From: an uncultured Planctomycetales bacterium
GTDB lineage: Bacteria; Omnitrophota; Gorgyraeia; Zapsychrales; JANLHA01
Direction: 5' to 3'
NCBI GenBank assembly: GCA_964474085.1
Contig: CAYYRJ010000002.1
Span: forward strand, 6,110-70,109
Length of the DNA: 64,000 nt
Shown: positions 5,661 through 63,973 of the stretch, piece after piece
Position numbering within the stretch: position 1 is the first letter of the stretch
How the letters are laid out: every line of letters begins with the position of its first letter
Notes under the pieces: generated by a model
Told to the model about the DNA's origin: nothing
What the model saw: the letters and a program-made list of their open reading frames with translations, nothing else
Databases searched by the model: none
Program-made: the position numbers and the translations under genes

Positions 5661-7067
5661 ATGAAAGAAAAAGTCGTCATTTTAGGCGCTGGAATTGCCG
5701 GGTTATCCGTCGGGTATTTCCTAAGCCGCAGCGGGCGCTATGAAGTTGTTGTCTTAGAGCAGTCGCAGACCGTCGGAGGATTGTGCGCAAGCTTTCCCTA
5801 TAAAAACTTTACCCTTGATTTTGGCCCGCACAAAATCTATTCGGTGCTGCCGGGAATCCTCGACGATTTGGTTGCGTTGATGGGTGATCGTGCCCTGCGT
5901 GTTGAAAAGAAAAACAAAATTTTTATTAACGGCCATTACTTAGAGTATCCGCTGAAACTAACGAATCTTCTGAACGTTTTAGGTCCTAAACATTTCTTAA
6001 AAATCTTAACCACCTTTGCCTTCCAAAAAATCCATAATCTCGTCAGGAAGAAAAACGCCCAATCCTACGAAGATTTTATGATCCAAACTTTTGGGCAAGC
6101 GACGTATCAGCTGATCTTTGAGCCGCTCGCCGAAAAAGTATGGGGCGCGCCCCAAAGTCTGCACGCGGACATGGCGCGGATTCGCGTCTCATCGCTGAAC
6201 ACTTTTCACCTTATTCTGCGGCTTCTCAAACTTTTGCCCGAGAGCCAAGAGACAAGCGCGAAATATTTTTATTACCCTAAAAAAGGCTTTGGAGATTTTG
6301 CCGAAAAACTCAAAGAAGAAATTCAAGCGACCGGCGGCAAAATTTTGACGAACGCTTTTATTAAAGAATTTCATCATAAGGACAATCAAATTACGGGCAT
6401 AACCGTCGAGATAGGGAAGGGTTCCGCTCAATTTTCCTGCGACACGCTCATTTCCTCGATTGCTTTACCGCAACTTTTAAACTATGTTCTACCCGAAAAA
6501 CAGGATGCAGACGTTCTTTCAGCCCGCCATTTGCTTTTGGTGTATCTCTTTGTCAATAAACCTAAAGTTATAGATGAGCAATGGGTTTTCTTTCCAGAAC
6601 GCAAATTTATTTTTAGCCGCATTAGCGAACAAAAAAATATGTCGGAAGATATCGCGCCCGACGATAAGACAATTGTCTGCTGCGACTTTACTTGCGAAGC
6701 TGATAGCGAAATCTGGTCAACAAACGATGATCTTTTAATCACCCGCTGCGCCCAACAGCTCGCAGAGGCTAAAATAATGAACCTCGCAGATATTCAAAAA
6801 GACGCATGTTTTGTCATCCGCAAAAAGAATTTTTATCCACGCTATGACCTTCAGTATTTGGAAAAAATGGCGCACGTCACAAGCAAACTAAAGAAATTTA
6901 CGAATTTATTGACGACGGGCCGTTTGGGTATGTTTAATTACAATAATTCCGACCATTGTTTTGATATGGGAAAATTTATTGCCCAAGGTTTGTCGGACAA
7001 AAAAACCTGTCCGCAAATATGGGCAGAACTCGAAGAGCGCGTGCGAGAATATAAAATCGTTGATTAA
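5661..7067 (+). CDS. FAD/NAD(P)-binding oxidoreductase (amine oxidase / protoporphyrinogen oxidase-like fold)
   Basis: N-terminal dinucleotide-binding motif VVILGAGIAGLSVGYFLSRSG...VLEQSQTVGG; ATG 5661 preferred over tracker start 5619. Confidence 0.7.
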   Translation: MKEKVVILGAGIAGLSVGYFLSRSGRYEVVVLEQSQTVGGLCASFPYKNFTLDFGPHKIYSVLPGILDDLVALMGDRALRVEKKNKIFINGHYLEYPLKLTNLLNVLGPKHFLKILTTFAFQKIHNLVRKKNAQSYEDFMIQTFGQATYQLIFEPLAEKVWGAPQSLHADMARIRVSSLNTFHLILRLLKLLPESQETSAKYFYYPKKGFGDFAEKLKEEIQATGGKILTNAFIKEFHHKDNQITGITVEIGKGSAQFSCDTLISSIALPQLLNYVLPEKQDADVLSARHLLLVYLFVNKPKVIDEQWVFFPERKFIFSRISEQKNMSEDIAPDDKTIVCCDFTCEADSEIWSTNDDLLITRCAQQLAEAKIMNLADIQKDACFVIRKKNFYPRYDLQYLEKMAHVTSKLKKFTNLLTTGRLGMFNYNNSDHCFDMGKFIAQGLSDKKTCPQIWAELEERVREYKIVD

Positions 7068-7068
7068 A

Positions 7069-8790
7069 ATGCCTGCATTTATAAAAAAAACCAAAGCGTT
7101 ACTTTTTGGAATAATAATTTTAGTTAACGTCATCGTCTATTTCCCATCTTTTTTTGATAGCTGCCGGGGGCCGGATCATCAGATCTTTTTAGGGGAAATT
7201 GCCCACATTGAGTCCTTGCCAGAGTTAATCAGCGAATCGTATTCCTACAACCGCTCCCGCGAGCAAATGACAGGGGACAAAGTCCTTTTTCGCCCTTTGG
7301 TGTATCTTCTTTTAGCCTTTGATCGCTGGTTTTTTGGCTATGACTTTTTTTGGTGGCAGCTGGCAGCTTTTGTTTTGCACATTCTGGCGCAATGGGTCTT
7401 GTTTCGAATCCTCAATACTTTTGTTTCTCAGCGATGGTCGTTTGCTCTCGTTTTGTTGTGTTCTCTGTTGCTTTTGCAGCAAGAGCTCGTCGGACGGCAC
7501 CATATCAGCGGGTACCTTTTTTTCCAAATCTTTGGCATGATGGCCATTTATCAATTCTTTAAATACTGCAAAGATCCCGGGAACCAGGAAAAAGTCTTTT
7601 TAACGACCTTAGTGTGGTTGACGCTTTCGTTTTTTGGGTGTGAATGTGCTCTTATCCTCAATGCACTTTTTATTGGGCTTCTATGGATGCCATGGAAATC
7701 GGTATTTCGCCGTTTCCCCAACCGTCACAAAGTCCTGATTTTTTTGCCGATGGGTATCTACAGCGCTGTCAGCGGTGTAGATTTTCTTTTACGGACAAAA
7801 AATTTTTCTTACGCTCAAGAAGGCTTGACCGGCTCGGCACAGACGAACTCTTTTAGTATCGGTATTTTTTTATCCAACTTTTCCAACATCATCAAAATGA
7901 GTTTTGAAGGATTCTTTTTTCCGGCATTTACAAAAATAAAATTTGTTGGACATCAATATAATTATGAAGCTTTTGATTTTCGTCTTGATAGTATTCCACA
8001 GAAATTAAATGCGCTGTTGGCTGTTTTTTTTGCCGTGTTTTTTATTTTCTGTGTTTACTCGGTAATAAAGAACAGGCCTGCCATTAAATCTTTTTGGAAT
8101 AAAAGAAATTCTGTTTTAGGCCTGACAATGCTTCTTTTTTCGGTACTTTATGCGACCCTCTTGTGTCTGACGCGTTTGCAATTAAGTCCGGACTATCTGC
8201 GAACAGTCCCGCACCACTTTTACTTTATTTATTCTTTTGGTCTTATGGGTTTAACGATTCTAATTGCACCGTTTCTAATGTTTATCGACGGGCATCGACC
8301 AATCATAAAGAATGCTTTTTTGGTTCTGCTGATTTCTTTATCATGCTTGCAAGGATATTATTTGCACCGTTTAAACAATGACCTTAAAAATCTCTGGGAA
8401 CCACAACGGATCTTTTTAAAAGAAGTCGACCGCTTTGTCAAAAGTCATAAAAGCGAACCGGATTTTTCGTTCGGTCTTTTTAAAAGTGAACTGGTTTACA
8501 CGCATCTGATTTATGTCAACAATCAACCGCCAGTCCAAAAGAATTTAGTCGAGATGTTTTTTCCAAATTATTTCAAAACCAATAGCCCGCGATATTATCT
8601 GGTGTATACAAAAAAACAGGGACTCCAGACGTTTAAATCCCCCGCAGATGCCAATCGTTATGTCGATGAAATCACACAAAAAAACGGGAAATGGGATCAA
8701 GAGGTTTATATCGGTACGAGCAAAGTTGATTTTCAAAAGCTCTTTTTACTGCAAAAGTACTTGCCGTTATTTAAACAACAAAAAAAATAA
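7069..8790 (+). CDS. polytopic integral membrane protein (possible GT-C-like), hypothetical
   Basis: about 573 aa from MPAFIKK (ATG 7069 immediately after upstream TAA); many hydrophobic helices, Trp/Phe-rich; last gene of the glycan-modification cluster. Confidence 0.5.
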   Translation: MPAFIKKTKALLFGIIILVNVIVYFPSFFDSCRGPDHQIFLGEIAHIESLPELISESYSYNRSREQMTGDKVLFRPLVYLLLAFDRWFFGYDFFWWQLAAFVLHILAQWVLFRILNTFVSQRWSFALVLLCSLLLLQQELVGRHHISGYLFFQIFGMMAIYQFFKYCKDPGNQEKVFLTTLVWLTLSFFGCECALILNALFIGLLWMPWKSVFRRFPNRHKVLIFLPMGIYSAVSGVDFLLRTKNFSYAQEGLTGSAQTNSFSIGIFLSNFSNIIKMSFEGFFFPAFTKIKFVGHQYNYEAFDFRLDSIPQKLNALLAVFFAVFFIFCVYSVIKNRPAIKSFWNKRNSVLGLTMLLFSVLYATLLCLTRLQLSPDYLRTVPHHFYFIYSFGLMGLTILIAPFLMFIDGHRPIIKNAFLVLLISLSCLQGYYLHRLNNDLKNLWEPQRIFLKEVDRFVKSHKSEPDFSFGLFKSELVYTHLIYVNNQPPVQKNLVEMFFPNYFKTNSPRYYLVYTKKQGLQTFKSPADANRYVDEITQKNGKWDQEVYIGTSKVDFQKLFLLQKYLPLFKQQKK

Positions 8791-8797
8791 CAGCTAA

Positions 8798-8870
8798 CAA
8801 CAAAATTCGTGCTTTACATCCGACGCCAAGTTTGGTCAAATACGGGATTTTTAACGTGCTGGTGCCTTTG
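8798..8870 (+). promoter_or_regulatory. promoter module copy 1 (TTTACA-17nt-TCAAAT) upstream of giant gene 1; near-duplicate of module at 15097
   Basis: aacaaaattcgtgctttacatccgacgccaagtttggtcaaatacg... shares about 45 of 49 leading nt with 15097-15146; -35 TTTACA at 8813-8818, 17-nt spacer, -10-like TCAAAT 8836-8841. Confidence 0.4.
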
Positions 8871-9060
8871 AAAGCTAGACTAGAAATTTCTGTCGTCGAG
8901 GGACAGTAAAATTTCCTTGCTGAGAGTCAATTCATGTAGTATTCTTTAGCTGTGTCCTAACCCATCAAAAGTTCTTGATTCAACTTTCTCAACCCGTATA
9001 TTTTCGTTATTTTGTGAGTCCAAAACGATGTTTATTGGCTCGTGGTCAACTGTGTTTGTT

Positions 9061-9110
9061 GTCATCCTCGTTGTGTTTATTGTCATCCCCGCGAAAGCGG
9101 GGATCCATTT
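9061..9110 (+). repeat. GNRA-hairpin palindromic repeat units in 5' leader of giant gene 1
   Basis: tgtcatcctcg...TGTCATCCCCGCGAAAGCGGGGATCCA immediately before ATG 9111; same unit recurs at 9781 and 26784. Confidence 0.6.
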
Positions 9111-12100
9111 ATGAATACAAAACATAAAAATTTATTTCGCAAAGGCGTTAGCACCCTGATTCTGCTGTGTTTTTTAAGCGGACAGGTCTTTTCGCCGTCG
9201 ATTGTTTCGGCACAAAGTGTCCTTAATCTGCCCATGCCCGGAGCGATGGTCGGCATCAGCCCCAGCTACGTTCCAATTGCCATTAAAGGCCTCAAAGTTT
9301 ATCCTGATAATCCTTTTCGTTTTGACTTTATCCTCGACACCGGCAACTCCCGACTTGAAGGCCAGAAACTCCAAAACGAAACTAATCTTTTAATCAAATA
9401 CTTCCTCGCCGCATTAACTGTTCCCGATGACGATCAATGGGTCAATCTTTCGCCTTATGAAAAAGACCGCGTGATCCCTAAAGAATTTGGGGTGACCGAA
9501 ATGGGCCGCGATTTGTTGGCCCAGGATTATCTGCTTAAGCAATTGACCGCATCATTGATTTATCCGGAACATGAATTAGGCAAGAAATTCTGGGACCGGG
9601 TAAATCAGAAGGCTTATGAAAAGTACGGCGACACAAAGGTCCCGATGAGCACATTCAATAAAGTGTGGATCATGCCCGACCATGCCAAGGTTTATGAAAG
9701 CGGGAGTGTCGCTTTTATCACCGAGAGTCATTTGAAGGTGATGTTGGAAAGTGATTATGTAGCATTGGCTACCCAGCAAATGTCATCCCCGCATGCTTTA
9801 AGCGGGGATCCATTATTAAAAATGGATTCCCGCTTCCGCGGGAATGACAAAGGAGAGCAAACAAACGCATTAGGTTCCCAAATCCTTCGCGAAATCGTCC
9901 TGCCGGAGATCGAAAAAGAAATCAATGAAGGCAAGAATTTTACCAAGCTGCGTCAAATTTATCATTCCATGATCATGGCTGCGTGGTTTAAGCGCAAACT
10001 ACAAGGAGGAATGCTGAGCAAGATTTATGTTGGTGCTAATAAAGTGGCGGGCGTCGATGTTGAAGACAAAGACGTTAAACAAAAAATTTACGACCAGTAT
10101 ATCGTTGCGTTCAAGAGGGGTGTTTATAACTATATCAAAGAAGAAATCGACCCCGTCACTCAAGAAAACACACCACGCAAATATTTTTCCGGCGGGGTCG
10201 TGGCAGGGAAAGCCGTGGCGTATACAACGGTCATTGAAATCGCAAGTTCACCACAGCAATTAAACACCGTTGTCGCTAGCAGCACCACTGGCAATTTAAT
10301 TACGGCTTTTTCGACGTTGGAGCCAACATCCGCTTCCAGTTCTTTGGATGATAAGCGTATCAAAAGAATGCTGGAACTTTCCAAGAGTAAAGATTCTTGG
10401 GACTGGGTTTCTGACGAGTGGGAAATTAGCGAACTCATCTACTCCCCAGGAGGGATTCAGAAGTCCGGTATAATTGGTTCCAACCGGCAACCGATTGCAA
10501 CTGACGAATTCGGAAATCGTCCACACTGGGTTTATATCCTTTACAATTCGCAAACTGACAAAACCGTCTATGTCGGACCCGATGATGTCAAAGCCCTTTT
10601 TGGGAAACGTGATCGATTGGAAACTATCGATCAACTGCGCGCGGAAAAAGAAGCGGAAATTAAGGCCAACAGTGCACGGGTAAAGATAATCGCTGCGCTT
10701 CGACAGCTCTTTGGCGAAACAGAGGGCACAAAGCAACTAGTGTCCGAATTGGCCGGTGATATTGAAAAACCCGGCGATCGCCATATCGAGCTTATTGAAT
10801 CCTCAGAGCAAGAATACGAAGAAATCTGGAAGAATTTTCAATTGCCGGATGTAGCGCTCCAGAGATTCCTAGAAATATTTTATGATGTAAGCAAAGCCGC
10901 CAAAGAGGCCAAAAGATGGGAAAAACTGATTTACCTGTCCGTAGATGACCAAAAGCAGGTTTCCAAAGTGCTCGCCGGCATTAAAGATGGAAAAACTTTG
11001 ACAATTGAGGATATCCGTTTATTGATCAAAGTCCACAAAGTTATCTTGGATTTAAAAAACAGTCTCAAAAAAGAAGCCTTAGTTTGGGCCAGGCGCGGAA
11101 CACAGAAATCTGACGAGCATGTCAATCCAAGGCGGCCCGCTTATCAAGCCAATATTTGGGTCGCATCCTGGCTGGCCGCTGCGAGTCTGACTCATCCACT
11201 AATTTTAGACGTGGGAGCAAATTCAAGCGTCCTGTGGTCAACATTAAAAGGCTTTTCCCCGGAGTTGGCAGATGATGTTGTTGACCTCGAATACGATAAA
11301 GATATTTATGAAGTTGCTCCGAATCCCTTAAAAATTCGCGCTGATATCAGCCGCCTCACGGATGGGATCGAGAGTTCCGATGAAACAACCAAAGAACTGA
11401 TTACAACGCCTCACAGCTTCGATATTCTAACTGTTAACTTTGTTTTAGACCAGCTTGAACCCGCCGATGTCCGAGGCGCTTTAATCGCTTTTGAACATTT
11501 GCTTAAATTGGCTTCCGATCATCCGCGGCTAATTATTTCCATGCCTAAGGGGTCGCCGTTAAAAGGTTCTCGTTTTCATGCCGTTTTGCAAAGACTTGGC
11601 TATAAAACCATTGTTGAAGGCGCGAATTTGAGCAATCAGTTAACAACTGCTGCCAAAGAAAGAATCAGCCAAGAAACAGGAGGCAATGAATATTTGCGCA
11701 CGATTGAAGCGACCTTGACCGAAAAAGTTTTTCACGTTGGGGTTTATGAAAAAACCAGAGACGTTGCCGCTAGCGAATTTGATCAGATCGATCTTTCGGA
11801 TCTTGAAATCCGTAACGGCGACAGCAGGCAATCAAACGGTAACGGAAACGGTAACGGTTTTGATTACCGCTTTACGCCTGACACAGTTGATCTTAACGAT
11901 CTATTTGCCTCGCTCAAGCCGGAAGATTTTCTAACTAAATCCGTAGAAATTGTGACGCTAAATGAATTAAGCACAAACCCACAGTATGCGGCGTTCTATA
12001 AAAATTTAGATGTCTTATTATGGCTCAAGGATATGATTACGAATAGGCCTCAAGTTTTAGAAGCCATCCCACAATTGCGCACCTTAAAGCGCAGTTGGGA

Positions 12101-13904
12101 ATCCGCCGCCAGGGCCAAGGCTTCGATGGATGAAGGAGCTGCTTTTATCCAGGCGGATTTTGTCCGGGATATCATGTGGGCGATGGACAGAACAATATTG
12201 GTTTTAGATCAGGTCGCAGCTATGTCGCCGGATGTCTTTGAACACTTAACCCGCCAAAGAGAAGAGGTTAAAACAGCATGGGATTTTGATAACCGGTTTA
12301 ACGTCGATTTTGACCAAGCCCGGCAGGCGTTCATAAGAAATCTAGAAAAACAGAAATATTCCCTTGAGAACATCTACGACATATACCAGATAATTTACGC
12401 CGAAGCTCTTGGACTTGTAGCTGCCCTTGAACAACCTAAAGCTGTTGTAGAGAATAAGCCATATCAAAAACCGGCTAACCCAAAATTCCTCAATGAGGCT
12501 CTCGGTATTAAAAGTTATGCTGACCCCAAAATTGAGGAACAAATAAAACAAACGGCCGCCCGACTCAAAGAACAAAACGGACGGATGGGAACAGTCAGCG
12601 AGATCGCAAAAGCAATGGACGTCGATGTCCTTTTGCTAAATATGCATCTTAAATTCTTTTATCGCAACGATACTCAATATGTAGCATCATTGAATAATTT
12701 AGGGATGGAGCCGGATGACATTCCTTCAAATAAAATGGCACGACGCAAACTTGTGAGTGAAACAGCGATAAGAATTCTTGAAAAATATGGTTATCTTCCC
12801 ACACCGAAAATGGTTGAACGCGTTCTTGGGTTACGGAATGGAACGCTCAACCGATGGCGAACCAAGGGAGGAATGTTGGAGGAACAAGAAGACTGGGGGA
12901 CATTAGGTCTTTTTGCTTACTATGATCGCACTGATTTCGACTACCACACCATCCCCATCGAATCCCGGCTTGCCGCCGTGCGATATTTAGCCAATATAAT
13001 CCGCACCGATCCAAATCCAAAGCCGCTCATTAAACTATTTTTTGATTATTATCATATCCCACTTCATTCAGCAGCTAGGCTTATGAAATCATTATTTGAA
13101 GACGGTTATACCCTTGATGCGCTGGGGATCGACCCAAAGTTCTATAATCATGCTGAATACTTTAAGCCGCAAAACGCTGCATATACGCTACGCATTTTTC
13201 ATAATAAAGATTACCCTGTCGATAAAAGAGAGCAGGCCATAAAGACAATTATTGGAAACTTGGAAAACCGCGGGATTAAGCCGACCTACAGCGCCGTTCT
13301 AAAAGAAATGAATCTTGATATACCGAATTTCTTGAAATTTATTGCTCCTATTCTTCCAGCGGGAGATAGTTATTATGTAAAATTCGGTATCGAAAATGGT
13401 AGCGTCCCCACAGGTTATGACGAGGCGGCTTATCAAAGACTAGAAAAAACTGTGTCTGCCCTGAACTCCCAAAATATTCCGCTAACATGGCCTAATGTTA
13501 AAAAATGGGTTTTTGAGCATTACCCCGCTACTGAGCTGCACGACGGCTGGCTGCCCGGGCCTATCCGACACGATGAGACCGCAAAAAGAAAGGACGCGCT
13601 GGGAATTGCCGACGGTGAACAAATACCGATCGCCAGTTCCAGTTTAAGTCAAGCAGAAATATCACCTGCGACAAAAACCAGAATGGAAAACAATCTCGGC
13701 GGTATCGACATGAATTCAAAGGCTTTAGATTTGCAAACAGAAGGAGAAGGGATCAAGTTCGACATGCCGTTTGACCCGACACAGTTACAAAACATCAAAA
13801 TCGAAGGTTTCACACCGGTGATTTTACGTATCCTTCCAACCAATTTGCCGCTATTACGCGATCTTAAAGAAAATAAAAAAGAAATAGAAGTTAGTAGCTT
13901 ATAA
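9111..13904 (+). CDS. giant secreted protein 1 (about 1597 aa) with conserved N-module and C-module shared with giants 2 and 3; contains methyltransferase-like segment and GNGNGNG repeat
   Basis: Signal-peptide-like start MNTKHKNLFRKGVSTLILLCFLSGQVFSPSIVSAQS; N-module YFLAALTVPDDDQWVNLSPYEKDRVIPKEFGVTEMGRDLLAQDYLLKQLTASL...VWIMPDHAKVYESG shared with ORFs at 55413 and 58661; the 23 codons upstream of 9111 in the tracker ORF are repeat translation (CHPRESGDP). Confidence 0.8.
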   Translation: MNTKHKNLFRKGVSTLILLCFLSGQVFSPSIVSAQSVLNLPMPGAMVGISPSYVPIAIKGLKVYPDNPFRFDFILDTGNSRLEGQKLQNETNLLIKYFLAALTVPDDDQWVNLSPYEKDRVIPKEFGVTEMGRDLLAQDYLLKQLTASLIYPEHELGKKFWDRVNQKAYEKYGDTKVPMSTFNKVWIMPDHAKVYESGSVAFITESHLKVMLESDYVALATQQMSSPHALSGDPLLKMDSRFRGNDKGEQTNALGSQILREIVLPEIEKEINEGKNFTKLRQIYHSMIMAAWFKRKLQGGMLSKIYVGANKVAGVDVEDKDVKQKIYDQYIVAFKRGVYNYIKEEIDPVTQENTPRKYFSGGVVAGKAVAYTTVIEIASSPQQLNTVVASSTTGNLITAFSTLEPTSASSSLDDKRIKRMLELSKSKDSWDWVSDEWEISELIYSPGGIQKSGIIGSNRQPIATDEFGNRPHWVYILYNSQTDKTVYVGPDDVKALFGKRDRLETIDQLRAEKEAEIKANSARVKIIAALRQLFGETEGTKQLVSELAGDIEKPGDRHIELIESSEQEYEEIWKNFQLPDVALQRFLEIFYDVSKAAKEAKRWEKLIYLSVDDQKQVSKVLAGIKDGKTLTIEDIRLLIKVHKVILDLKNSLKKEALVWARRGTQKSDEHVNPRRPAYQANIWVASWLAAASLTHPLILDVGANSSVLWSTLKGFSPELADDVVDLEYDKDIYEVAPNPLKIRADISRLTDGIESSDETTKELITTPHSFDILTVNFVLDQLEPADVRGALIAFEHLLKLASDHPRLIISMPKGSPLKGSRFHAVLQRLGYKTIVEGANLSNQLTTAAKERISQETGGNEYLRTIEATLTEKVFHVGVYEKTRDVAASEFDQIDLSDLEIRNGDSRQSNGNGNGNGFDYRFTPDTVDLNDLFASLKPEDFLTKSVEIVTLNELSTNPQYAAFYKNLDVLLWLKDMITNRPQVLEAIPQLRTLKRSWESAARAKASMDEGAAFIQADFVRDIMWAMDRTILVLDQVAAMSPDVFEHLTRQREEVKTAWDFDNRFNVDFDQARQAFIRNLEKQKYSLENIYDIYQIIYAEALGLVAALEQPKAVVENKPYQKPANPKFLNEALGIKSYADPKIEEQIKQTAARLKEQNGRMGTVSEIAKAMDVDVLLLNMHLKFFYRNDTQYVASLNNLGMEPDDIPSNKMARRKLVSETAIRILEKYGYLPTPKMVERVLGLRNGTLNRWRTKGGMLEEQEDWGTLGLFAYYDRTDFDYHTIPIESRLAAVRYLANIIRTDPNPKPLIKLFFDYYHIPLHSAARLMKSLFEDGYTLDALGIDPKFYNHAEYFKPQNAAYTLRIFHNKDYPVDKREQAIKTIIGNLENRGIKPTYSAVLKEMNLDIPNFLKFIAPILPAGDSYYVKFGIENGSVPTGYDEAAYQRLEKTVSALNSQNIPLTWPNVKKWVFEHYPATELHDGWLPGPIRHDETAKRKDALGIADGEQIPIASSSLSQAEISPATKTRMENNLGGIDMNSKALDLQTEGEGIKFDMPFDPTQLQNIKIEGFTPVILRILPTNLPLLRDLKENKKEIEVSSL
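9781..9849 (+). repeat. 69-bp composite palindromic element inserted in-frame in giant gene 1
   Basis: TGTCATCCCCGC-atgctttaa-GCGGGGATCCA ttattaaaaa TGGATTCCCGC-ttcc-GCGGGAATGACA; translated in frame as MSSPHALSGDPLLKMDSRFRGND; 69 nt = 23 codons, no stop. Confidence 0.7.
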
Positions 13905-15004: not shown

Positions 15005-15096
15005 CTTGTGGCCTTGTTGGCGCAACGGGTTTAAGCTCAAAGGGAGCTTACGAGACTTCTAAAATTAGGACATTTTTAATTTGGTTGGACAAGAAC

Positions 15097-15165
15097 AAAA
15101 TTCGTGCTTTACATCCGACGCTAAGTTTGGTATAAATACGAAGCTTTTGGCGTGCTGGCGCACTG
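15097..15165 (+). promoter_or_regulatory. promoter module copy 2 (TTTACA-17nt-TATAAAT) driving the tRNA operon
   Basis: -35 TTTACA 15111-15116, 17-nt spacer, -10 TATAAA 15134-15139; near-identical to 8798-8845. Confidence 0.55.
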
Positions 15166-26692: not shown

Positions 26693-26923
26693 CCCCCTCT
26701 TAAGTTACAGACTGGGTCAGATGCAGGGGCATTCTGAAAAGTGGATTCCCGCTTTCGCGGGAATGACAAAAGAGGTAGTGTCATCCCTGCGAAAGCAGGG
26801 ATCCAGGGTTTTAGTGGCACATAATTAAAAAATTTTATGTTCTCGACGACAAGCTATAATTCATCGTCGACAAATATCATTAAATCTCTCCCCATCTGAC
26901 CCAGCCTGAAGTTAAAGAGGGGG
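26693..26923. mobile_element. MITE-like non-autonomous element with 31-bp imperfect terminal inverted repeats carrying GNRA-hairpin repeat units
   Basis: Left end CCCCCTCTTAAGTTACAGACTGGGTCAGATG vs right end CATCTGACCCAGCCTGAAGTTAAAGAGGGGG (about 26 of 31 complementary); interior holds TGGATTCCCGC-tttc-GCGGGAATGACA and TGTCATCCCTGC-gaaa-GCAGGGATCCA plus TCGACGA...TCGTCGA; no ORF. Confidence 0.55.
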
Positions 26924-55412: not shown

Positions 55413-58400
55413 CTAGTTAGTTATTTCGCTTAATATTGGTACGGTCTGGACATTAATCGGCATAATATTAAGGATAACCGGATAAAAACCATTTACATGA
55501 ATATCCTCTAAATCTTTTTGCGAGAAAGACAGATGCCCACGACTCCGATCTTCATCACCCTCGATCTGCAAGTTGAGTTTAGAAGGATCAAAGTTAATAC
55601 CACCGAGATTTTTATGGACCGCTGGAAAAAAAGCAGCTTCATGTCCATTAACTGCGTTTAAAACGACACCGTCTTTTTGTTTATCTAAAACGTTTTTCTC
55701 TACCCGTCTAGATAATTCGTTTCGTGCCCATGCAAAAATAAGTTCATACATCTTGTCCCCCGCAGAAACACCACTGGCTTTAGCGAACACTTCTCCCTCA
55801 TTGAAAGCAAGAACTCTTTTCCAAGAAGATCGAAACCAATACTTAATCGCAAATGGCCGAAAAAGCACACTTTCCGACGATCCTTTTGCCCAATATTCGA
55901 GATATTCCTTATCCAATGCAGCAAAATATGTTTGAAAAAAAGTTTGTATCATTTCGGCGGAAGACGGCAAAATATATTTTTGATCAGGCTCAGTGTATCT
56001 AACAATGTCTTTTATATCCTCGAGCACAGAAAGCATACCTGCCGTGCTAATTCTATACTTGCGCAATGTTTCGATATCTTTTTCAGTAGCTTTTCCTTTT
56101 TCAACATAAACAACAAAATCATTGTAGGAAAGAAATTCTTCATTGTCTGATTCTTGAAAAAACGGGAAAACGATATCTTGAGGATGTATCGTTTTTTTGA
56201 ATAATTGCTTATTTTGTTTTTCTGCTTCAGCCAAAGCTCTTTTTTCGACTCCTGCTAAGATCAATTCTTTAACTGACAAAATCTTCCCCGCAGGCAACAT
56301 GTTTAACTCCACCATTCTTCTCGATATTCTTCGACGCAATCGCTCGAATCCCGGATCGCCATTAAGAATTTGACGAAACTTGGTTAATCGCTGCGGGTAT
56401 ACTACTCGATTAAATATGAGGACAGGAATAAACTTCGACCCATCCTCATCTTGAAAAAGATCCAGATTTTTTACGGAAACTAGATTGCCATTCCCGTCGG
56501 GTATCTCATTTAAATATTGATACCCCAAAATTTCGACAAACAAACCTTTTGTATTCTCTAAGATTTTACTAGCAGCCATGGCCGCCTTGGCTTCTTTTTC
56601 AGAGGCTAATCCCCAGTTTCTCGAAGATGCTAATTCCGGGTTTCTTAATAGTTCAGGCATACTTTTCACTGAGAAAAAAGGAGGTTTATCCTCATATACG
56701 TACTGACCTGATCCTTTTATACTAAACCAAGAAGAGGCATAGGCCTGCCTCCCATTGGCGACTCTAAATCCGGGGCTAAAAGTTTCATCCGCCGAACTAA
56801 ATCGATCGGTGATCCCAATAAATATTTTAGTTTCCGGGTTTTGACGTAATGCCCTAAGAGCAACCTCTGCATTGCCAATTAGAAAACCGCGATGTTCTTT
56901 TATATAATCCCGTATCGGCTTACCATCAATATACTCAACAGCCCTATTATTATTGACGACCATATCACCAACACTATGATCGGGCAATGATTGCAAAAAT
57001 TGCGGCCTCAAGGAAGGGTCATCTAATAAAATTTGTTTAACTTCCAAAGTAAACAAATCTAAAAGTGGTTGATAATGATGTTCCTTGTGTTCAAAGTCAG
57101 GGAAGATAGAATCTTGCCTCGTTAAATAAGCTCGCCATTTACTCTTAAATTCTTCTGGGGATAAATCTTCTGCCAAATTTACTTCCTGGGTCTTCGCGAT
57201 ATTAACGAAACCATCCTCGGCAGGATTAACTTTTCTGGCGTGGTGACTTTCCGAAACACGGGAAGAAACAAGCACGACTTGGTTTTCCTGCAAATCGCTA
57301 ATCGCGCGCACAGCCAGATCACGTCCGCGATCATCAATGACGGTTAATGAACTCGAAGCAAAGCTCATCACTTCTCCACCCGAGAAATATTTTCGAGGAA
57401 TCATTTCCCCATCGGGGCCGTCTTCTTCCTTGATAAGGTTATATGCGCCGTTTTTGAATGCTTCCAAATACTTCTCATAAACTTCTTGCTTAATATCTTG
57501 AACATCGCTTTCAAGACCTGCGACTTTCGATTTGTCGGTGTAAATTCTGCTAAACAAAGAGTCTTTAAGCGCCTTTTTATACCAAGCCGCTAAAATGACG
57601 CTTTGATAAACTTGGCGGGTCGCGGCAAAATTCTTGCCCGTGTTGACTTCTTCAATAAGCTTAGGCAAGATCAGCTCGCGAAAAACCGCGGTGGAAATGG
57701 AAACGACAGAAGAACCCCTATTTATCTGTAGGGGCGTATTGCAATACGCCCCTACGGCATTATTTTCATATTCCTCATCTAACATCACCTTTAATTTACT
57801 TTCCGTAATGTAAGCAAAGCCGTCCTTTTCGACAACTGTTGCGCCGTCGGGAACGATCCAGACTTTATTCTGTAGGGGTGTATTACAATACGCCCCTACG
57901 GCAATGCTTCGTTCATTAACTGTATCCCAGAATCTTTTCCCCAAATCCGTATCCGGATTGGTCAAAGACGCAGCCAACTGCTTTAAAACATAATCCTGTT
58001 CAAGCATTTGTCGACCCATTTCGGTTTGTCCGAGAGCATCAGGAACGATACGATCTTTCTCATACGGTGATAGATTAACCCACGCGTCCTTATCAGGAAT
58101 AGTGATGGAAGCTAAAAAGTATTTTATGAGTTTTGTGCTTTCGTTTTTGAGGGTCGCATTATCGATCCTCTCCTGCCCGCGATCGACGATAAAATCAAAC
58201 AAAAACGGATTTTCAGGATGAACCGTCATCCCTCTTAATACGGGCGGTTGAAAAGCGACCGAAGTCGCAAAGTCTAAAGGGATACCGATCCGACCCGCGG
58301 CGAGGCCAGAGGTAAGCCAAACCATCTGCCCTACCAAAAACGCCAGCAGAATAAAGCCGCTCATAGCTTTGCGAAACCCAAATTTATCTTTAACAAGCAT
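55413..58400 (-). CDS. giant secreted protein 2 (about 995 aa); N-module and C-module shared with giants 1 and 3; unknown core
   Basis: N-module LIKYFLASITIPDKDAWVNLSPYEKDRIVPDALGQTEMGRQMLEQDYVLKQLAASL...VWIVPDGATVVEKDG; C-module KNLGGINFDPSKLNLQIEGD...VNGFYPVILNIMPINV; start ATG 58400 (MLVKDKFGFRKAMSGFILLAFLVG, signal-peptide-like) preferred over 58481, which would overlap the small ORF at 58403-58630. Confidence 0.75.
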   Translation of the reverse strand: MLVKDKFGFRKAMSGFILLAFLVGQMVWLTSGLAAGRIGIPLDFATSVAFQPPVLRGMTVHPENPFLFDFIVDRGQERIDNATLKNESTKLIKYFLASITIPDKDAWVNLSPYEKDRIVPDALGQTEMGRQMLEQDYVLKQLAASLTNPDTDLGKRFWDTVNERSIAVGAYCNTPLQNKVWIVPDGATVVEKDGFAYITESKLKVMLDEEYENNAVGAYCNTPLQINRGSSVVSISTAVFRELILPKLIEEVNTGKNFAATRQVYQSVILAAWYKKALKDSLFSRIYTDKSKVAGLESDVQDIKQEVYEKYLEAFKNGAYNLIKEEDGPDGEMIPRKYFSGGEVMSFASSSLTVIDDRGRDLAVRAISDLQENQVVLVSSRVSESHHARKVNPAEDGFVNIAKTQEVNLAEDLSPEEFKSKWRAYLTRQDSIFPDFEHKEHHYQPLLDLFTLEVKQILLDDPSLRPQFLQSLPDHSVGDMVVNNNRAVEYIDGKPIRDYIKEHRGFLIGNAEVALRALRQNPETKIFIGITDRFSSADETFSPGFRVANGRQAYASSWFSIKGSGQYVYEDKPPFFSVKSMPELLRNPELASSRNWGLASEKEAKAAMAASKILENTKGLFVEILGYQYLNEIPDGNGNLVSVKNLDLFQDEDGSKFIPVLIFNRVVYPQRLTKFRQILNGDPGFERLRRRISRRMVELNMLPAGKILSVKELILAGVEKRALAEAEKQNKQLFKKTIHPQDIVFPFFQESDNEEFLSYNDFVVYVEKGKATEKDIETLRKYRISTAGMLSVLEDIKDIVRYTEPDQKYILPSSAEMIQTFFQTYFAALDKEYLEYWAKGSSESVLFRPFAIKYWFRSSWKRVLAFNEGEVFAKASGVSAGDKMYELIFAWARNELSRRVEKNVLDKQKDGVVLNAVNGHEAAFFPAVHKNLGGINFDPSKLNLQIEGDEDRSRGHLSFSQKDLEDIHVNGFYPVILNIMPINVQTVPILSEITN
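57728..57755. repeat. 28-bp perfect palindrome inserted in-frame in giant gene 2 (copy 1)
   Basis: GTAGGGGCGTATTGCAATACGCCCCTAC; translated on the minus strand as AVGAYCNTPLQ. Confidence 0.7.
57872..57899. repeat. 28-bp palindrome inserted in-frame in giant gene 2 (copy 2, two mismatches)
   Basis: GTAGGGGTGTATTACAATACGCCCCTAC; also translated as AVGAYCNTPLQ; the two copies flank the conserved VWIVPD...ITESKLKVMLDEEY segment. Confidence 0.7.
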
Positions 58401-58402
58401 AT

Positions 58403-58660: not shown

Positions 58661-61600
58661 TTAAACGTCTGAATGCTCCAACTGCGATTTAAACCCCAAA
58701 AAAATCGGCATATTTACCGGCGTCATCGGCGAGATATTTCTAATAACAGGCACAAGCCCCGGGATATCAAGCAATGCCGGATCCTGAAACTGCACAGGTA
58801 ACACGAACCCTTTATCATCAACTTTGACATTGATCTTTAAATTATTCGCATCAAGGTCAATACCGCCAACCGGCGCTGAGGCAACACTTGCGGCGGCATC
58901 TGAATCCGGCAAAAGATAATACGGAAACAAATGCGGCAAAATAACCTCTCCTGCTTGACGAGAAGCAATCGAATTATAATTGCGATGATTCCCTATGCCG
59001 GTGACATCCGCCTGCGGCACAATCAGAACACCAGCCACACTTTCTTCGCCGTCTCTGACATCCAAAACAGTGATATCCGCGCCGTCTGAAAGCGGATGAT
59101 CGCCGCGCTTTATCCCTTGTGTGTTGATCCATGCAACTTTTGCATTAAACGCGTTTCCTTTAATGGATCCGATAACTCGCCTGCTTTCTAAACCCTGCTC
59201 ATCAACTAAGACATAATCGGTATCTTTGTCAAAAGCCGCAGACCTTAAAAAGTTTTGCTCGTCGGGACTGACCGTCGTAAATTTGACGCGTTGTTGTCCC
59301 GAAATTTCAAAAAGATGTCCATCGTTTTCTTGAAACTGCTGGATTAACTTATCCGCCGAGGAATCTTTTTTTGTCACAACCACAATGTTGATGGGTTTAC
59401 CGTTTGGTTTTGCGGCCGTGTCAAAAACCCAATGTTTCAACAGAAGATTAACCGCCCCGGCAAATGACGGCGCGGAAATTCCCTGAACTTCCTGACTAAA
59501 GGCCTTTGCGGCACCGGCTTCAGCTGTCGCTAAAAGTAGCTGCGCTGTTGCGCTCGCCGGATTTCCAAAACGTCCATATGTCCGGTAAGATCCCTGAGCA
59601 GGAAAAGAACCACTGCTAGGATCCCCCGCCTTGCCATTCCAACCAAAACCAGTTTTAAGATCATCCGGGTCATCCGCGCGAAAAGCGTTTGATGGATTGC
59701 CGCCGCTGGCAACCAGCGAGCGATGGTCTCCGCTTAACAATCCCCAAATGGACGTATGATGTATAAACAATGTGTGCGGATTATATTTTGTGATCAGCGT
59801 CGCATCGTTGATCAGCTGCGCTGTTTGTTTAAGAGGATTTTCCGAGATAATAAAATAGTCCCGAACCCGGTCAAGTTCGGCAATTGACGCATTGATATCC
59901 GGTTCCACGCCGTAGGCGCCTTTTGTGTCACGCTTGACGACTGGATACTTGCGCAACGCGTAGCCTGTTTTTCCGTCGACATTTGTTGTCGGCTGCATAA
60001 AAATAGTGTCGAGCTGCGCGAACGGAATTTTTTCAAACTTGCCATCGTATATTTTAAGAATCTCAAAAATAGCGTCTAATTCACGCAAAACATCCTTTGG
60101 ATCCTCAATTCCCACAGCCCAGCGAATACCCCCACGCGTGACCCCGCCTTGGCGCAGTTCTTCGTCACTTAATCCCGATAGCGCGCCATAACCGGGCATT
60201 TGCATGAGGTTACGAACATCACCTAGGCTCACAGCGTGTTCAATAGTTCGAAAATACCGTAAAAGCGCCATAAACGCTTTCGCGCGCTCTTCTGTTTTCA
60301 AATCAAAATAAATCATATGTCCCGGGTTATCCATCTGCTTTTGCGCTAAACCATATTGTGGATGCGTTTGATCGCCGGGATAACGCACAAACTCAACCTG
60401 AGGATTCTTTTTTAACCACTCGACATAAAATCGGGCGTTTTCCTGCTGCCGAAAAAATCTTCTTTCCAAATTCGGCAATCCGTAACGCAAAAGTTTAATC
60501 GCATCATCCCTATTGATCGGCTCGGCCCGAGAATTTCGCAATTCTTGCGCGATCTCTTTTTGGGCAACAATGACCGCGCCAAAAACATTTCCGTCGCCGG
60601 AAAGCCCTTTGGTCACAACCTGAACAACCGCGTCAACACCAAAATCTAGCGGCTGTTGGCCTAAGGATGTTGCAAATGATCCGTCGAAAATAATAAACGC
60701 TTGCGGTGAAACAGAACTGCGCACCGCGTCAACTGTCCGCTTAATACTAATAATCGGCAAGGAAGGATTAGCCGGAGTTTCAAAAATCAAAGCCGCTGTA
60801 TTTCGAGATAACTCCTGCGCAAGTTGATTTTCCGGATCAGTCACAATCTTAACCTTAAGGCCATATTTCCTATATAATTCAACATCGCCTTCTGTCCCGC
60901 CGTAAGCCGGACGAATTAAAATTATTTCAGGAACCAAAGCAGGATTTTGTTCAGTAAATTTTTTTAACGCGTATCGCAGCGGCAAATGCACACCAGCAAC
61001 ACCGGAAGCAACACTAACACCGGCATATTGCTCTGTTACTAAATTTCGTGTCTCAAGCGCTGTGATCGCCTGCTCAACTTGTTCGACAGGATTCAAAACG
61101 ATTTGAGGTGTATTCCCAGAACCATTATTCCCGCCAGAGCCGGCTTTATTTGCGATTGGAGGTTTTCTTGGTGCTCGGGCTTTTGCCACAGGCTTTTGTC
61201 CCAAAGCTTCTTGCGCAACCACAACCCGAAGCTCATCTAAAGTCTCTGTTTTTGCGGCAATGGGACTGATGCTATCCGATATAAATCCCTGTGCTGTCCC
61301 GACGCTAATTCCTTCATCTTCCAAAACAACATCTGGTTTATTTTCTGATGTATTAACAGGAAGAATTCGGTTTGTATCAACAACGGTCTGATCTGCTAAA
61401 ACTGTTTTTGTAACCGTAGCGTTAGCTCCAATTTGAGCCCCTTTACCGACGGTGATCGGTCCTATGATCTGTGCTCCGGCGCCTAAAGTGACATCATCTT
61501 CAACAATGGGGTGTCGGCGACCGTCAATCGTATTTTTATTTGCGCCAAGGGTCACGCCATGCAAAATATAAACATTGTTTCCAACGACAGCTGTCTGCCC

Positions 61601-63973
61601 TATAACAACACCTGTCGCATGATCAAACAATACGCCATCGCCAATTGTCGCGCCTGGATGAATATCCACCCCGAAATTGTTCGTGATCGCATTTTGTAAA
61701 GCTAAAGCCAAATCCTGCCTGTCATTAAGCCACAGCCAATGTGCGATGCGATAAGCCGCAAGCGCGTGGAACCCTTTAAAATTAAGGAATGGATTAGAAA
61801 TATCCCCGGACGCAGGATCACGTTCAAGCACAGCCAAAAGATCGCGGCTAACTGAGTTAAGAATATCCGGCGATGCGTTTAACACTTGCAATATTCCCTG
61901 CTTTAGCTTATCAACATCAAATACGTCTGAGCGGAGTTTACTTGCTAATAAATTAGCAAGCGCCGTTTTAAAATCTGGTGCGGAAAGGATCGTTTTTTCA
62001 AGAGGCGCAGAAAGAAGCGGCTCTTGTTTGGCAACACGGCCAGCATTTTCTTTTAAACGATTCCAGAGAGAATCCAATTGCGCCGAATCAGAACTGCTAT
62101 CTGCCTTACCGCTAGTATCTCCAACAACTTTTAATGCTGGTTTTTTTGTCGACGTTTTTGCGGCTTTTTCTGCCCGCTTTAAATTTGTTGAACTTTCCGT
62201 CTTCGCGTAAACTCTTTTTAATTGCGCTAAACGTTCCCATGCTTCTTCTGGATCAATCGAATCAATCTGGCGATCATCTCGATGGGCTCTTAAACTTTCG
62301 GCAATTGCTTTTTCGGAAACAACGATCAACCCTTTTGAATTTTGCTGCGCAAGCGTTGTGGTTGCCTTATTTAAACGTGCCCCGCTGAAAGCAACAAGCG
62401 CTTGCGGATTTTTAGCATTGACCGTCTGGATAAATTGCTGCGAACTTTCTGATTTCGCAAATGGGAACAATACAATAGCAGTTTGTTTTGTCAAAACTTC
62501 GGTTAACTGTTCAATATTCTTAACAATGTGCACTTGCTGTGAATTACGACGAGCATATTCGCCAATAACGCTATCTTGCGGCGTATCTTCAGGGATATAA
62601 AATACTACTTGGCCGGCTTGGCCGGTAAATTCAGGTTTTGTTTTTGCAAAATCGATCAGATGACCTACAGCTGAGAATTGATCCGCATAACTGACACCGT
62701 CAAAATCGCCTTTTTCTCCTGAAAAATGCACACGCGCAGTCAAATGCTCAACGGACCGCACCTTTTGATCGACTCCCAAATCCGAAAAATCATTGTAAGC
62801 TGATCGTATCGCATTGACCAAATCCGTATCAACTATATCCGGTGATTTGCCGTTTAAAAGTCGGTTCACCGAGCTTGAGGATACATTAGTGTTAATAATC
62901 GTCGGGTCAACGCCCAGCATCCCGCCGGAAAAATATTTACGAGGCAAAGTCTCATGCGTTAGCGGATCTTCTTCTTCCTTAATATAGTTAAACACCCCGA
63001 CCTTAAAAGCCTGCAAATATTGTTCATAAATTTTTTCTTTAGCCTGCGGGTCATCAACCTGCACACCCGCGACTTTATTCTTATCCGTGTAAACTTGCGC
63101 TAAAAGTGTTTCCTTGAGTGTTTTTTTATACCATGTCGCGAGAATCATTGAATTGTAGATCTGGCGAAGCGGCGCAAAGTTTTTGCCCTCGTTGACTTCC
63201 TTTTCGATGATCGGGATAATAATTTCGCGTACCGCGTTTAAAGTATATTCCTGATTTTCTGTGGAACTTTCAGGTTGCACCGTCTGTCCGCCGGAAGCCA
63301 AAACTTTGCTGTTTTCTTTTTCGGCCAGATAATCTTTTTCGAGCATGACTTTCAAATGGCTTTTTACCAAAAACGCAGTGCCGTCTTTTTGATAAATATC
63401 TGCCTGATCGGCACGAATCCAAATTTTATTAAATGTATTAATAGGGATATCTGTCGTCTTAAATTTTTCATATGCCTGACTATACACTTTTTGCCAAAAT
63501 CCACGACCAATATCCTCTTCTGGATACATCAAAGAGGCTGTAAATTGTTTTAGAATATAATCCTGTGCTAAAAGTTCTTTTCCGGTGTTCGTTTGCTCAA
63601 GATTTTTGCCAATGATCCGATTAGACTCATAAGGCGAAAGATTAACCCACATGTCTTTATTGGCAACCGTCAAAGATGCAAGAAAATGCTTAATGAGTTT
63701 TGTGTACTGTTCTTTCTGCTGATTGGCACTCAAAAGCTCATCGCCCTTGTCCATCACAAAGTAAAAGTGGAAAGGGTTTTGCGGGTCGATCTTTAAACCG
63801 ATCATCTGCGCCGGAGTAAAAATGCCGGTCGGCTGCAACATTTGCCCGATGGGAGAAAGCAAAGGCACAGCTTGCGCATAACCCGACTGCGCAGGCAACG
63901 CGCTTAGCATAAACACAATAAGTGCAATCGCGATTGGACGAAACAAAGATTTTTTCTTAATTTGCTGAAACAT
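58661..63973 (-). CDS. giant secreted multidomain protein 3 (1770 aa): shared N-module, complete CysE-like serine acetyltransferase, complete PLP-dependent Cys/Met-metabolism (CGS/OAS-OAH sulfhydrylase family) domain, shared C-module
   Basis: Signal peptide MFQQIKKKSLFRPIAIALIVFMLSALPAQSGYAQA. N-module HFLASLTVANKDMWVNLSPYESNRIIGKNLEQTNTGKELLAQDYILKQFTASL. Residues about 700-860: GFHALAAYRIAHWLW...DIHPGATIGDGVLFDHATGVVIGQTAVVGNNVYILHGVTLG (SAT). Residues about 955-1305: ASGVAGV...YGGT...ETPANP...FDGSFATS...GVDAVVQVVTKGLSGDGNVFGAVIV...GIRWAVGIEDPKDVLRELDAI (PF01053-type, PLP lysine K1122 at nt 60608-60610). Confidence 0.8.
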   Translation of the reverse strand: MFQQIKKKSLFRPIAIALIVFMLSALPAQSGYAQAVPLLSPIGQMLQPTGIFTPAQMIGLKIDPQNPFHFYFVMDKGDELLSANQQKEQYTKLIKHFLASLTVANKDMWVNLSPYESNRIIGKNLEQTNTGKELLAQDYILKQFTASLMYPEEDIGRGFWQKVYSQAYEKFKTTDIPINTFNKIWIRADQADIYQKDGTAFLVKSHLKVMLEKDYLAEKENSKVLASGGQTVQPESSTENQEYTLNAVREIIIPIIEKEVNEGKNFAPLRQIYNSMILATWYKKTLKETLLAQVYTDKNKVAGVQVDDPQAKEKIYEQYLQAFKVGVFNYIKEEEDPLTHETLPRKYFSGGMLGVDPTIINTNVSSSSVNRLLNGKSPDIVDTDLVNAIRSAYNDFSDLGVDQKVRSVEHLTARVHFSGEKGDFDGVSYADQFSAVGHLIDFAKTKPEFTGQAGQVVFYIPEDTPQDSVIGEYARRNSQQVHIVKNIEQLTEVLTKQTAIVLFPFAKSESSQQFIQTVNAKNPQALVAFSGARLNKATTTLAQQNSKGLIVVSEKAIAESLRAHRDDRQIDSIDPEEAWERLAQLKRVYAKTESSTNLKRAEKAAKTSTKKPALKVVGDTSGKADSSSDSAQLDSLWNRLKENAGRVAKQEPLLSAPLEKTILSAPDFKTALANLLASKLRSDVFDVDKLKQGILQVLNASPDILNSVSRDLLAVLERDPASGDISNPFLNFKGFHALAAYRIAHWLWLNDRQDLALALQNAITNNFGVDIHPGATIGDGVLFDHATGVVIGQTAVVGNNVYILHGVTLGANKNTIDGRRHPIVEDDVTLGAGAQIIGPITVGKGAQIGANATVTKTVLADQTVVDTNRILPVNTSENKPDVVLEDEGISVGTAQGFISDSISPIAAKTETLDELRVVVAQEALGQKPVAKARAPRKPPIANKAGSGGNNGSGNTPQIVLNPVEQVEQAITALETRNLVTEQYAGVSVASGVAGVHLPLRYALKKFTEQNPALVPEIILIRPAYGGTEGDVELYRKYGLKVKIVTDPENQLAQELSRNTAALIFETPANPSLPIISIKRTVDAVRSSVSPQAFIIFDGSFATSLGQQPLDFGVDAVVQVVTKGLSGDGNVFGAVIVAQKEIAQELRNSRAEPINRDDAIKLLRYGLPNLERRFFRQQENARFYVEWLKKNPQVEFVRYPGDQTHPQYGLAQKQMDNPGHMIYFDLKTEERAKAFMALLRYFRTIEHAVSLGDVRNLMQMPGYGALSGLSDEELRQGGVTRGGIRWAVGIEDPKDVLRELDAIFEILKIYDGKFEKIPFAQLDTIFMQPTTNVDGKTGYALRKYPVVKRDTKGAYGVEPDINASIAELDRVRDYFIISENPLKQTAQLINDATLITKYNPHTLFIHHTSIWGLLSGDHRSLVASGGNPSNAFRADDPDDLKTGFGWNGKAGDPSSGSFPAQGSYRTYGRFGNPASATAQLLLATAEAGAAKAFSQEVQGISAPSFAGAVNLLLKHWVFDTAAKPNGKPINIVVVTKKDSSADKLIQQFQENDGHLFEISGQQRVKFTTVSPDEQNFLRSAAFDKDTDYVLVDEQGLESRRVIGSIKGNAFNAKVAWINTQGIKRGDHPLSDGADITVLDVRDGEESVAGVLIVPQADVTGIGNHRNYNSIASRQAGEVILPHLFPYYLLPDSDAAASVASAPVGGIDLDANNLKINVKVDDKGFVLPVQFQDPALLDIPGLVPVIRNISPMTPVNMPIFLGFKSQLEHSDV

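Follow-up and report, generated by a model that had tools for sequence, protein, structure and literature searches.

Palindromic repeats of CGTC-1 type in an Omnitrophota genome and an in-frame dimer in a large gene

Palindromic units in and around gene 1

The DNA analysed here, hereafter the window, is a stretch of 64,000 nt from contig CAYYRJ010000002.1 of an uncultured bacterium placed by GTDB in the Omnitrophota, and it carries a family of short palindromic repeats in and around a large gene that we call gene 1 (Table 1). Five units of the form TGTC-ATYCCYGC-loop-GCRGGRAT-CCA occur at three places: one unit lies in the leader of gene 1, one composite of two inverted units lies in frame within gene 1, and two further units are intergenic, between leuA and the next gene. 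The original prediction, made from the sequence alone, had placed a palindromic element family at these positions, and the five units were found there. When the window was searched for the 12-nt left arm TGTCATYCCYGC, allowing at most one mismatch, five matches were obtained against 0.86 expected, and none of 100 shuffles reached five. We consider it probable (about 0.8) that the units belong to the CGTC-1 class of repetitive extragenic palindromic (REP) sequences, short non-autonomous repeats that spread within genomes and are present in many phyla, and that the composite in gene 1 is an inverted dimer, similar to the REP doublets forming hairpins known as REPINs, which was inserted in frame.

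The composite consists of 69 nt, exactly 23 codons as predicted, and is translated in frame and without a stop as MSSPHALSGDPLLKMDSRFRGND; of the three sense frames a single one is open, the frame that gene 1 uses. It is located 3' of a conserved LKVML-E-x-DY motif, in a loop where paralogues and homologues are unalignable. An AlphaFold model of the N-terminal domain has a mean predicted local distance difference test (pLDDT) score of 77, and the score dips to 58–67 over the inserted residues, with adjoining segments at 85–96. The protein is probably of a secreted type, and the dimer sits at a hypervariable, probably exposed loop.

All three places yield stable predicted RNA structures, with z-scores of -5.2 to -7.3 for the extragenic and in-gene folds together, in line with the stable hairpins that had been proposed, except that the in-gene composite folds as a single long hairpin (-39.5 kcal/mol, z -6.1) and not as two separate ones. 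The leader region folds at -23.6 kcal/mol (z -5.2), with the AUG of gene 1 within the outer helix, and the intergenic dimer at -39.9 kcal/mol (z -7.3). The description of the elements as GNRA hairpins held in part: GAAA is read on the + strand only in the leader unit and in the unit at 26779, loops are variable, and the label fails for the in-gene hairpins because their mRNA-sense loops are AUGCUUUAA and UUCC. A reading of the units as a CRISPR array was dropped, since both the spacing and the units are wrong, and a reading of the hairpins as terminators was dropped because no terminator-like T run was seen after the leader or the intergenic hairpin.

Translation of the units produces misleading peptides, as had been suspected. 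The start of the upstream open reading frame (ORF), ...CHPRCVYCHPRESGDP..., is a spurious N-terminus made of a translated REP unit, and the peptide SFPRKRESI of an antisense ORF has the same origin.

Upstream of the leader unit there is also a truncated 5' half-unit. Of 615 full units, about 35, from many phyla, are preceded at a distance of 17–24 nt by a similar truncated 5' arm (YGTCATYCCCG...), and such an arm is hardly ever seen on the downstream side; examples, besides the window pair at 9061–9071 and 9081–9107, are found in loci L359 (4683–4731), L212, L205 and L250. This largely one-sided placement could be a relic of how the units are copied.

The intergenic dimer is surrounded by an imperfect inverted repeat, the putative miniature inverted-repeat transposable element of the original prediction. 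Its 31-nt arms are 84% identical, and neither the window nor any of 358 fetched loci contained a second copy; a transposon was likewise not found.

Homologues lacking the insert were compared, as the original prediction had proposed. The closest homologue (P0001, locus L114) shows 71% amino acid identity, and about 80% nucleotide identity on both flanks, and it lacks the encoded peptide, the loop dimer and the leader unit. In paralogue 2, one of two further genes in the window which share with gene 1 an N-terminal domain of about 360 residues, the loop carries no palindrome and therefore serves as an internal empty reference; its DNA folds like shuffled sequence (z -0.3), as does the loop of L114. 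Sequence comparison thus suggests that the 23 encoded residues are a by-product of insertion and not an ancestral part of the protein. A second filled and empty pair is provided by L359, with two in-frame single units, and L366, where net gains of 24 and 27 nt are seen between flanks too diverged for the placing of junctions.

Table 1. Repeat units, host genes and occupied loops of homologues
Feature	Position	Strand	Description
Leader REP unit	9081..9107	+	TGTCATCCCCGC-GAAA-GCGGGGATCCA; TGTC tag, 8-bp stem ATCCCCGC/GCGGGGAT, CCA tail; ends 3 nt 5' of ATG 9111
Truncated 5' half-unit	9061..9071	+	TGTCATCCTCG; 20 nt upstream of the full leader unit
Gene 1	9111..13904	+	1597 aa; signal-peptide-like N-terminus; Omnitrophota-specific N-terminal domain of ~360 aa
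Whole inverted dimer in gene 1	9781..9849	+	Tags outward, CCA tails inward; variable loop, residues 224–246
Left-half REP unit of gene 1, 9-nt loop	9781..9812	+	TGTC-ATCCCCGC-ATGCTTTAA-GCGGGGAT-CCA
Spacer between the two dimer units	9813..9822		10 nt, TTATTAAAAA
Right-half REP unit of gene 1	9823..9849	-	Minus strand TGTC-ATTCCCGC-GGAA-GCGGGAAT-CCA; matches ATTCCC(N8)GGGAAT
Imperfect inverted repeat around intergenic dimer	26693..26923		231 bp; 31-nt arms, 84% identity; single copy here
Intergenic REP unit	26742..26768	-	TGGATTCCCGCTTTCGCGGGAATGACA
Intergenic REP unit, compensated stem	26779..26805	+	ATCCCTGC/GCAGGGAT; tags-inward dimer with the 26742–26768 unit
Paralogue 3	55413..58400	-	Same N-terminal domain; probable start ATG 58400
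GTAG-type palindrome, perfect, 28 nt	57728..57755	-	GTAGGGGCGTATTGCAATACGCCCCTAC; in frame AVGAYCNTPLQ, paralogue 3, same loop as gene 1 dimer
GTAG-type palindrome, second copy	57872..57899	-	2 substitutions; in frame AVGAYCNTPLQ; ~140 nt from the first, another site in paralogue 3
Paralogue 2	58661..63973	-	1770 aa; same N-terminal domain; no palindrome in loop
Loop of L355/P0091			GTAG-type dimer, in frame; -69 kcal/mol, z -9.2
Loop of L358/P0056			G/C-rich dimer, in frame; z -7.7
Loop of L356/P0067			Other palindrome family, in frame
Loop of L357/P0089			Other palindrome family, in frame
Loop of L360/P0031			CGTC-like dimer, in frame
Loop of L359/P0100			Single family-A unit, VIPAKAGIH, in frame; second unit near residue 77

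The surroundings of gene 1 show one further repeat. A direct repeat of about 75 nt, with a 41-nt core at 95% identity, is present at 8796–8870 and 15091–15170, next to a tRNA cluster. Between its copies lie gene 1, a small membrane ORF, a MazE-like antitoxin and the downstream partner ORF of the latter. The two copies may represent the borders of an island, or a duplicated promoter or leader.

Copies in other genomes and published repeat classes

A search for further copies revealed many in IMG/VR, in GTDB genomes, in metagenomes and in other Omnitrophota. The exact 25-mer pattern GTCATYCCYGCGAAAGCRGGRATCC, with four stem positions left free, was present in 113 IMG/VR stretches and in at least 120 stretches of GTDB species-representative genomes from many phyla; we estimate the chance expectation at about 0.02 matches in 596 Gb. 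Among the matches listed, the hosts include Alpha-, Beta- and Gammaproteobacteria, Desulfobacterota, Bacteroidota, Chloroflexota, Planctomycetota, Nitrospirota and Acidobacteriota, together with candidate-phyla-radiation lineages, a Rickettsia endosymbiont, three Omnitrophota metagenome-assembled genomes (MAGs) and one MAG labelled Nanoarchaeota. Of the 293 pattern matches, 283 (96.6%) have stems with Watson-Crick pairs throughout, where the marginals predict 68%; compensatory double changes are seen in 46. For 429 oriented units from other genomes, the base preceding GTC is C in 66% and T in 30%, the third tail position is A in 92%, and an A followed by G after ATCC is conserved. Loops vary between GAAA, GCAG, GAAG and 9-nt forms.

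Paired units are also common elsewhere, and in most the tags face outward (67 pairs against 13 with tags inward), the arrangement found in gene 1. Inverted dimers with short spacers occur in at least 120 metagenome stretches. Those that are complete (n = 57) measure 59–73 nt, with a mode at 66 nt, and mostly lie outside long ORFs; a long ORF runs across only a few of them, in contigs of high GC content, which often give rise to spurious ORFs. The lengths leave remainders of 0, 1 and 2 after division by three in 27, 15 and 15 cases, an excess that reflects the 66-nt master length of mostly intergenic copies and hence carries no information on selection within genes.

A parallel within the phylum comes from an Omnitrophota MAG (L167, JAHFHD010000044.1), in which the hetero-dimer of gene 1, a GAAA-loop unit joined to a TTAAAGCAT-loop unit, recurs at two places. 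Omnitrophota contigs other than that of the window carry as many as eight units in 8 kb, the figure reached by L167. The same contig carries at 6687–6990 a tandem array of three near-identical REP dimers, 108–119 nt apart and with 9-nt-loop units (ATGCCGTTA), and a fourth dimer at 7558–7630.

Two observations bear on how such distributions are to be read. The contig labelled as a Nanoarchaeota MAG (L148, JAHIPG010000372.1) is 3.8 kb long and holds a tags-inward dimer at 1510–1583; REPINs are said to be absent from archaea, and this contig is either mis-binned or an exception. Many IMG/VR loci (L019, L029, L049, L056, L057 and others) carry typical dRS3 arrays with repeated spacers of about 52 nt and a start-to-start distance of about 77 nt. 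These are presumably Neisseria prophage regions, so that part of the apparently viral distribution may be host DNA at prophage borders.

The published class that the units resemble most is that of the CGTC-1 tagged REPs of Di Nocera, De Gregorio and Rocco (2013, BMC Genomics 14:522; PMC3733652). It is defined there by a terminal CGTC tag, often TGTC and with CCTC allowed, an 8-bp stem starting with AT, a 4-nt loop and a CCA tail, and it is equated with dRS3 of Neisseria and RPE-6 of Rickettsia conorii. Inverted dimers were found to be frequent and foldable into one large stem-loop, in-frame intragenic singles and dimers coding for 20–30 amino acids were already described, and no dedicated transposase is known for the CGTC REPs (PMC3733652). 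The architecture in the window matches this class point by point, and on this the assignment is based. Each of the five window units carries a TGTC tag, a stem of ATYCCYGC and GCRGGRAT with complementary A/T at the first and second positions, and a CCA tail; four of the five have a 4-nt loop (GAAA, GGAA, GAAA and GAAA on their own strands); and the presence of inverted dimers and of in-frame intragenic copies, with no transposase nearby, is likewise shared. The exception is the 9-nt loop of the unit at 9781–9812; other loop lengths have been noted for the Bradyrhizobium CGTC-1 elements (PMC3733652). The host also differs, since the Omnitrophota lie outside the published list of Proteobacteria, Chlorobi, Bacteroidetes, Spirochaetes and Thermotogae (PMC3733652), and so does the repeated occupation of one protein loop, by different families and in different species, which is treated below. 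The element is thus of a known kind in a new phylum, and its in-frame dimer has a direct precedent, neither of which had been recognised in the original prediction.

The likeness extends to the named members and relatives of the class to different degrees. The dRS3 repeat of Neisseria, a 20-bp sequence ATTCCC(N8)GGGAAT, serves as the integration site of the filamentous phage Nf1 and has been proposed to mediate rearrangements (PMC3898611). This consensus fits two of the five window units, at 9826–9845 and 26745–26764 only, and the other three are ATCCCC or ATCCCT stem variants. The Neisseria REPIN master sequence ATTCCCGCGCAGGCGGGAATC, which is the dRS3 sequence (preprint 10.1101/2021.07.10.451892), has the same GTC...CCA flanks and departs from the units by its loop alone, GCAG in place of the GAAA seen here. 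In contrast to dRS3 and the Neisseria intergenic mosaic elements, the window shows no RS-like sequence between units, no large intergenic arrays and no link to a filamentous phage.

Rickettsia palindromic elements (RPEs) share with the gene 1 composite the insertion of a palindrome in frame in an intact ORF for an apparently functional protein, its absence from homologues and the addition of a short peptide in a tolerant region. They differ in host phylum, and the equivalence with RPE-6 is taken from PMC3733652. In a Rickettsia endosymbiont genome (L194) the unit pattern is matched exactly at three positions. The classical RPE-1 elements, of about 100–150 bp, are longer than the repeats seen here.

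REPINs, in the sense of Bertels and Rainey, consist of two inverted REPs less than 130 bp apart, and they are described as almost exclusively extragenic, lineage-specific, vertically inherited and accompanied by a cognate REP-associated tyrosine transposase (RAYT), whose single-copy gene is flanked by the REP. The composites at 9781–9849 and 26742–26805 resemble them as hairpin-forming inverted REP pairs within this distance. Unlike REPINs, however, the dimer of gene 1 is intragenic and in frame, and an identical 25-mer occurs in many phyla. A RAYT was detected neither in the scans of the window nor next to units at 234 loci.

The loop in the Omnitrophota N-terminal domain

The domain that holds the composite is specific to the phylum. 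A search with the first 400 residues of gene 1 gave 1,472 homologue matches, almost all from Candidatus Omnitrophota; no Pfam domain covers the region, and a fold search of the domain model against the PDB gave no match with E below 0.001. In gene 1 and paralogues 2 and 3 the domain spans 9111–10200, 62870–63973 (-) and 57300–58400 (-), respectively. It is joined to very different C-terminal partners: in paralogue 2 to a serine acetyltransferase with a Cys/Met pyridoxal phosphate enzyme, elsewhere among the matches to NUDIX, ankyrin or HAD domains. One match is named RecJ by its source. The three window proteins all end in a similar GGID/N...GF.PVI..I.P module.

The loop that carries the gene 1 dimer is occupied by other palindromes in other proteins. 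Among 123 aligned homologues its length has modes at 37 and 30 residues and exceeds 38 residues in 35, and many of the long loops contain peptides typical of translated palindromic repeats. Every loop for which DNA was fetched on this suspicion held an in-frame palindromic element, in at least six other genomes and from several families (Table 1). In the window itself three of five insertion events fall within the N-domain paralogues, that is, in about 5% of the sequence. Palindromic repeats are not mentioned in two preprints on giant genes and long proteins of Omnitrophota, and we found no description in the literature of one loop used recurrently by several repeat families; this is the new part of the present observations.

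Paralogue 3 contributes two of these events, through a second palindrome family that the original prediction had missed and which is in frame at both of its sites. The exact 28-mer of its perfect copy is present in five IMG/VR stretches. The element begins with GTAG and is therefore reminiscent of the GTAG-tagged REPs, although the tag of the latter is described as unpaired and here it pairs with CTAC within a 12-bp stem. No RAYT was found for this family.

Some neighbouring features may be added here. The annotated TTG start of paralogue 3 (58481) is a probable over-extension, the signal-peptide-like start being ATG 58400, and the 260-nt gap that separates it from paralogue 2 (58400–58660, -) contains an apparent small basic ORF at about 58402–58629, read by eye. 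A palindrome with a perfect 13-bp stem, TTAATCCTTGCGG-TAAC-CCGCAAGGATTAA, lies between two genes at 23824–23853 and is unrelated to both REP families. Further along, at 46845–49503 (-), a type 2A encapsulin shell gene (SrpI-like) adjoins a cysteine desulfurase with an N-terminal extension of about 200 residues, and the predicted layout is that of a desulfurase encapsulin system.

Mobilisation, alternatives and wider meaning

On the favoured reading, an inverted dimer would have entered the coding sequence of gene 1 at a hypervariable, probably exposed loop. It would have persisted there because its length is a multiple of three, because gene 1 reads it in its sole open sense frame and because additional residues are tolerated in the loop. 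The in-gene copy would then be a passenger whose retention depended on selection for length, for frame and for a loop that tolerates it, and the leader copy and the intergenic dimer would be ordinary extragenic members of the family. Movement presumably occurred as single-stranded hairpin DNA acted on in trans by a transposase, whether a RAYT, an IS200-like enzyme or another; by analogy with the GTAG REPs and with IS200/IS605 elements, a tyrosine HUH transposase would be the leading candidate. We infer this step; no mobilising gene was found in the window or near units elsewhere. The hairpins may in addition affect mRNA stability or translation.

Several results weigh against this reading or limit it. 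Pfam scans of the large ORFs, and of three small ORFs beside gene 1, revealed no transposase or recombinase in the 64-kb window, and when 1,897 ORFs within 400 nt of units at 234 loci were clustered, no recurrent transposase emerged, the only recurrent ORFs being phage structural proteins and spurious repeat translations. A scan for RAYT-like motifs, with a weak regular expression, was empty; the absence of a dedicated transposase is also a property of the published CGTC REPs (PMC3733652). The 9-nt loop departs from the class definition, and the count of units in the organism's own genome covers the 64-kb window. Moreover, for the window and L114, as for L359 and L366, the loop is too diverged for insertion boundaries to be placed, and a target-site duplication is therefore readable neither way.

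Other explanations would give the units a different primary role. They might mainly be RNA elements, with the leader hairpin controlling translation initiation of gene 1 and the intergenic dimer acting as a terminator or mRNA stabiliser after leuA. The strong folds of both structures and the AUG in the outer helix of the leader favour this, and a promoter-like site at 8975–9002 would put the leader unit in the 5' untranslated region, although this site is weak and at chance level; REPs located 3' of ORFs are described as probably transcribed, and a role in post-transcriptional control has been suggested for 5' copies (PMC3733652). We nevertheless regard such a role as unlikely, since neither structure is followed by a T run, such a hairpin is missing from the homologous leader of L114, Shine-Dalgarno-like sequences are used by few of the window's genes, so that nothing specific would be masked, and an Rfam scan of the whole window matched only four tRNAs and none of the REP units. 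It is less probable still that the units are recombination targets of an IS110/Piv-type integrase, from a phage or insertion sequence, whose copies promote domain shuffling among the N-domain fusions. The use of dRS3 by Nf1 and its proposed part in rearrangements, the many viral and prophage contigs that carry the unit, the fusion of the N-domain to very different enzymes and the IS110-family transposases reported in a preprint beside Omnitrophota giant genes all point that way, but the window yielded neither an integrase nor an IS110 element or phage genes, the repeat-holding loop is far removed from the fusion junctions downstream of it, and no rearrangement was seen with a breakpoint at a unit. 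That the 23 residues are native and conserved, and the DNA palindrome coincidental, is very improbable: an unbroken reading frame and the short helices modelled in part of the segment speak for it, yet the same DNA occurs in non-coding contexts of the window and in unrelated genomes, the closest homologue and a paralogue lack the residues, and loop sequences are unalignable between homologues.

A further alternative concerns the loop rather than the units, namely that it is a preferred landing or retention site, either because the machinery targets it or because the hairpin or peptide is selected, for instance as an element between sub-domains that causes a pause on the mRNA or stabilises it, or for diversification of a surface loop. 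The insert would in that case not be a mere tolerated passenger. This we regard only as a tentative possibility. In its favour are the in-frame palindromes at the same loop in L355 to L360, the GTAG palindrome of paralogue 3 at the loop used in gene 1, the concentration of window events in the N-domains and the proportion of long loops with repeat peptide signatures. On the other hand, the loci examined at the DNA level were chosen for long or odd loops, which biases the frequency, and tolerance alone could suffice where a loop is hypervariable, paralogues are numerous in each genome and constraint is relaxed; units are also found elsewhere in the domain, near residue 77 of P0100 and at the second site of paralogue 3. 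The stronger proposal, that the loop after LKVML(E)xDY is a genuine hotspot which receives many unrelated REP families in frame, through targeting or through selection for the hairpin or peptide, appears doubtful at present.

For genome annotation, REP units of this kind are a source of error: they give rise to spuriously extended N-termini, ORFs on the antisense strand and unusual peptides of low complexity (SFPRKRES, VIPAKAGIQ, DSRFRGND, VGAYCNTPL), in Omnitrophota and in many other uncultured lineages. The host range of CGTC-type REPs is extended well beyond the five phyla of 2013, with Omnitrophota, candidate-phyla-radiation lineages and Chloroflexota among the added hosts, and the identity of the 25-mer across phyla fits badly with REP inheritance that is lineage-specific and only vertical. 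As one loop has received different REP families in different species, numerous independent sites, filled or empty, are available for working out how CGTC REPs insert. Should the loop prove to be a true hotspot, it would provide a natural system for studying the choice of REP targets, and for testing whether surface proteins of these host-dependent bacteria are diversified by in-frame REPs.

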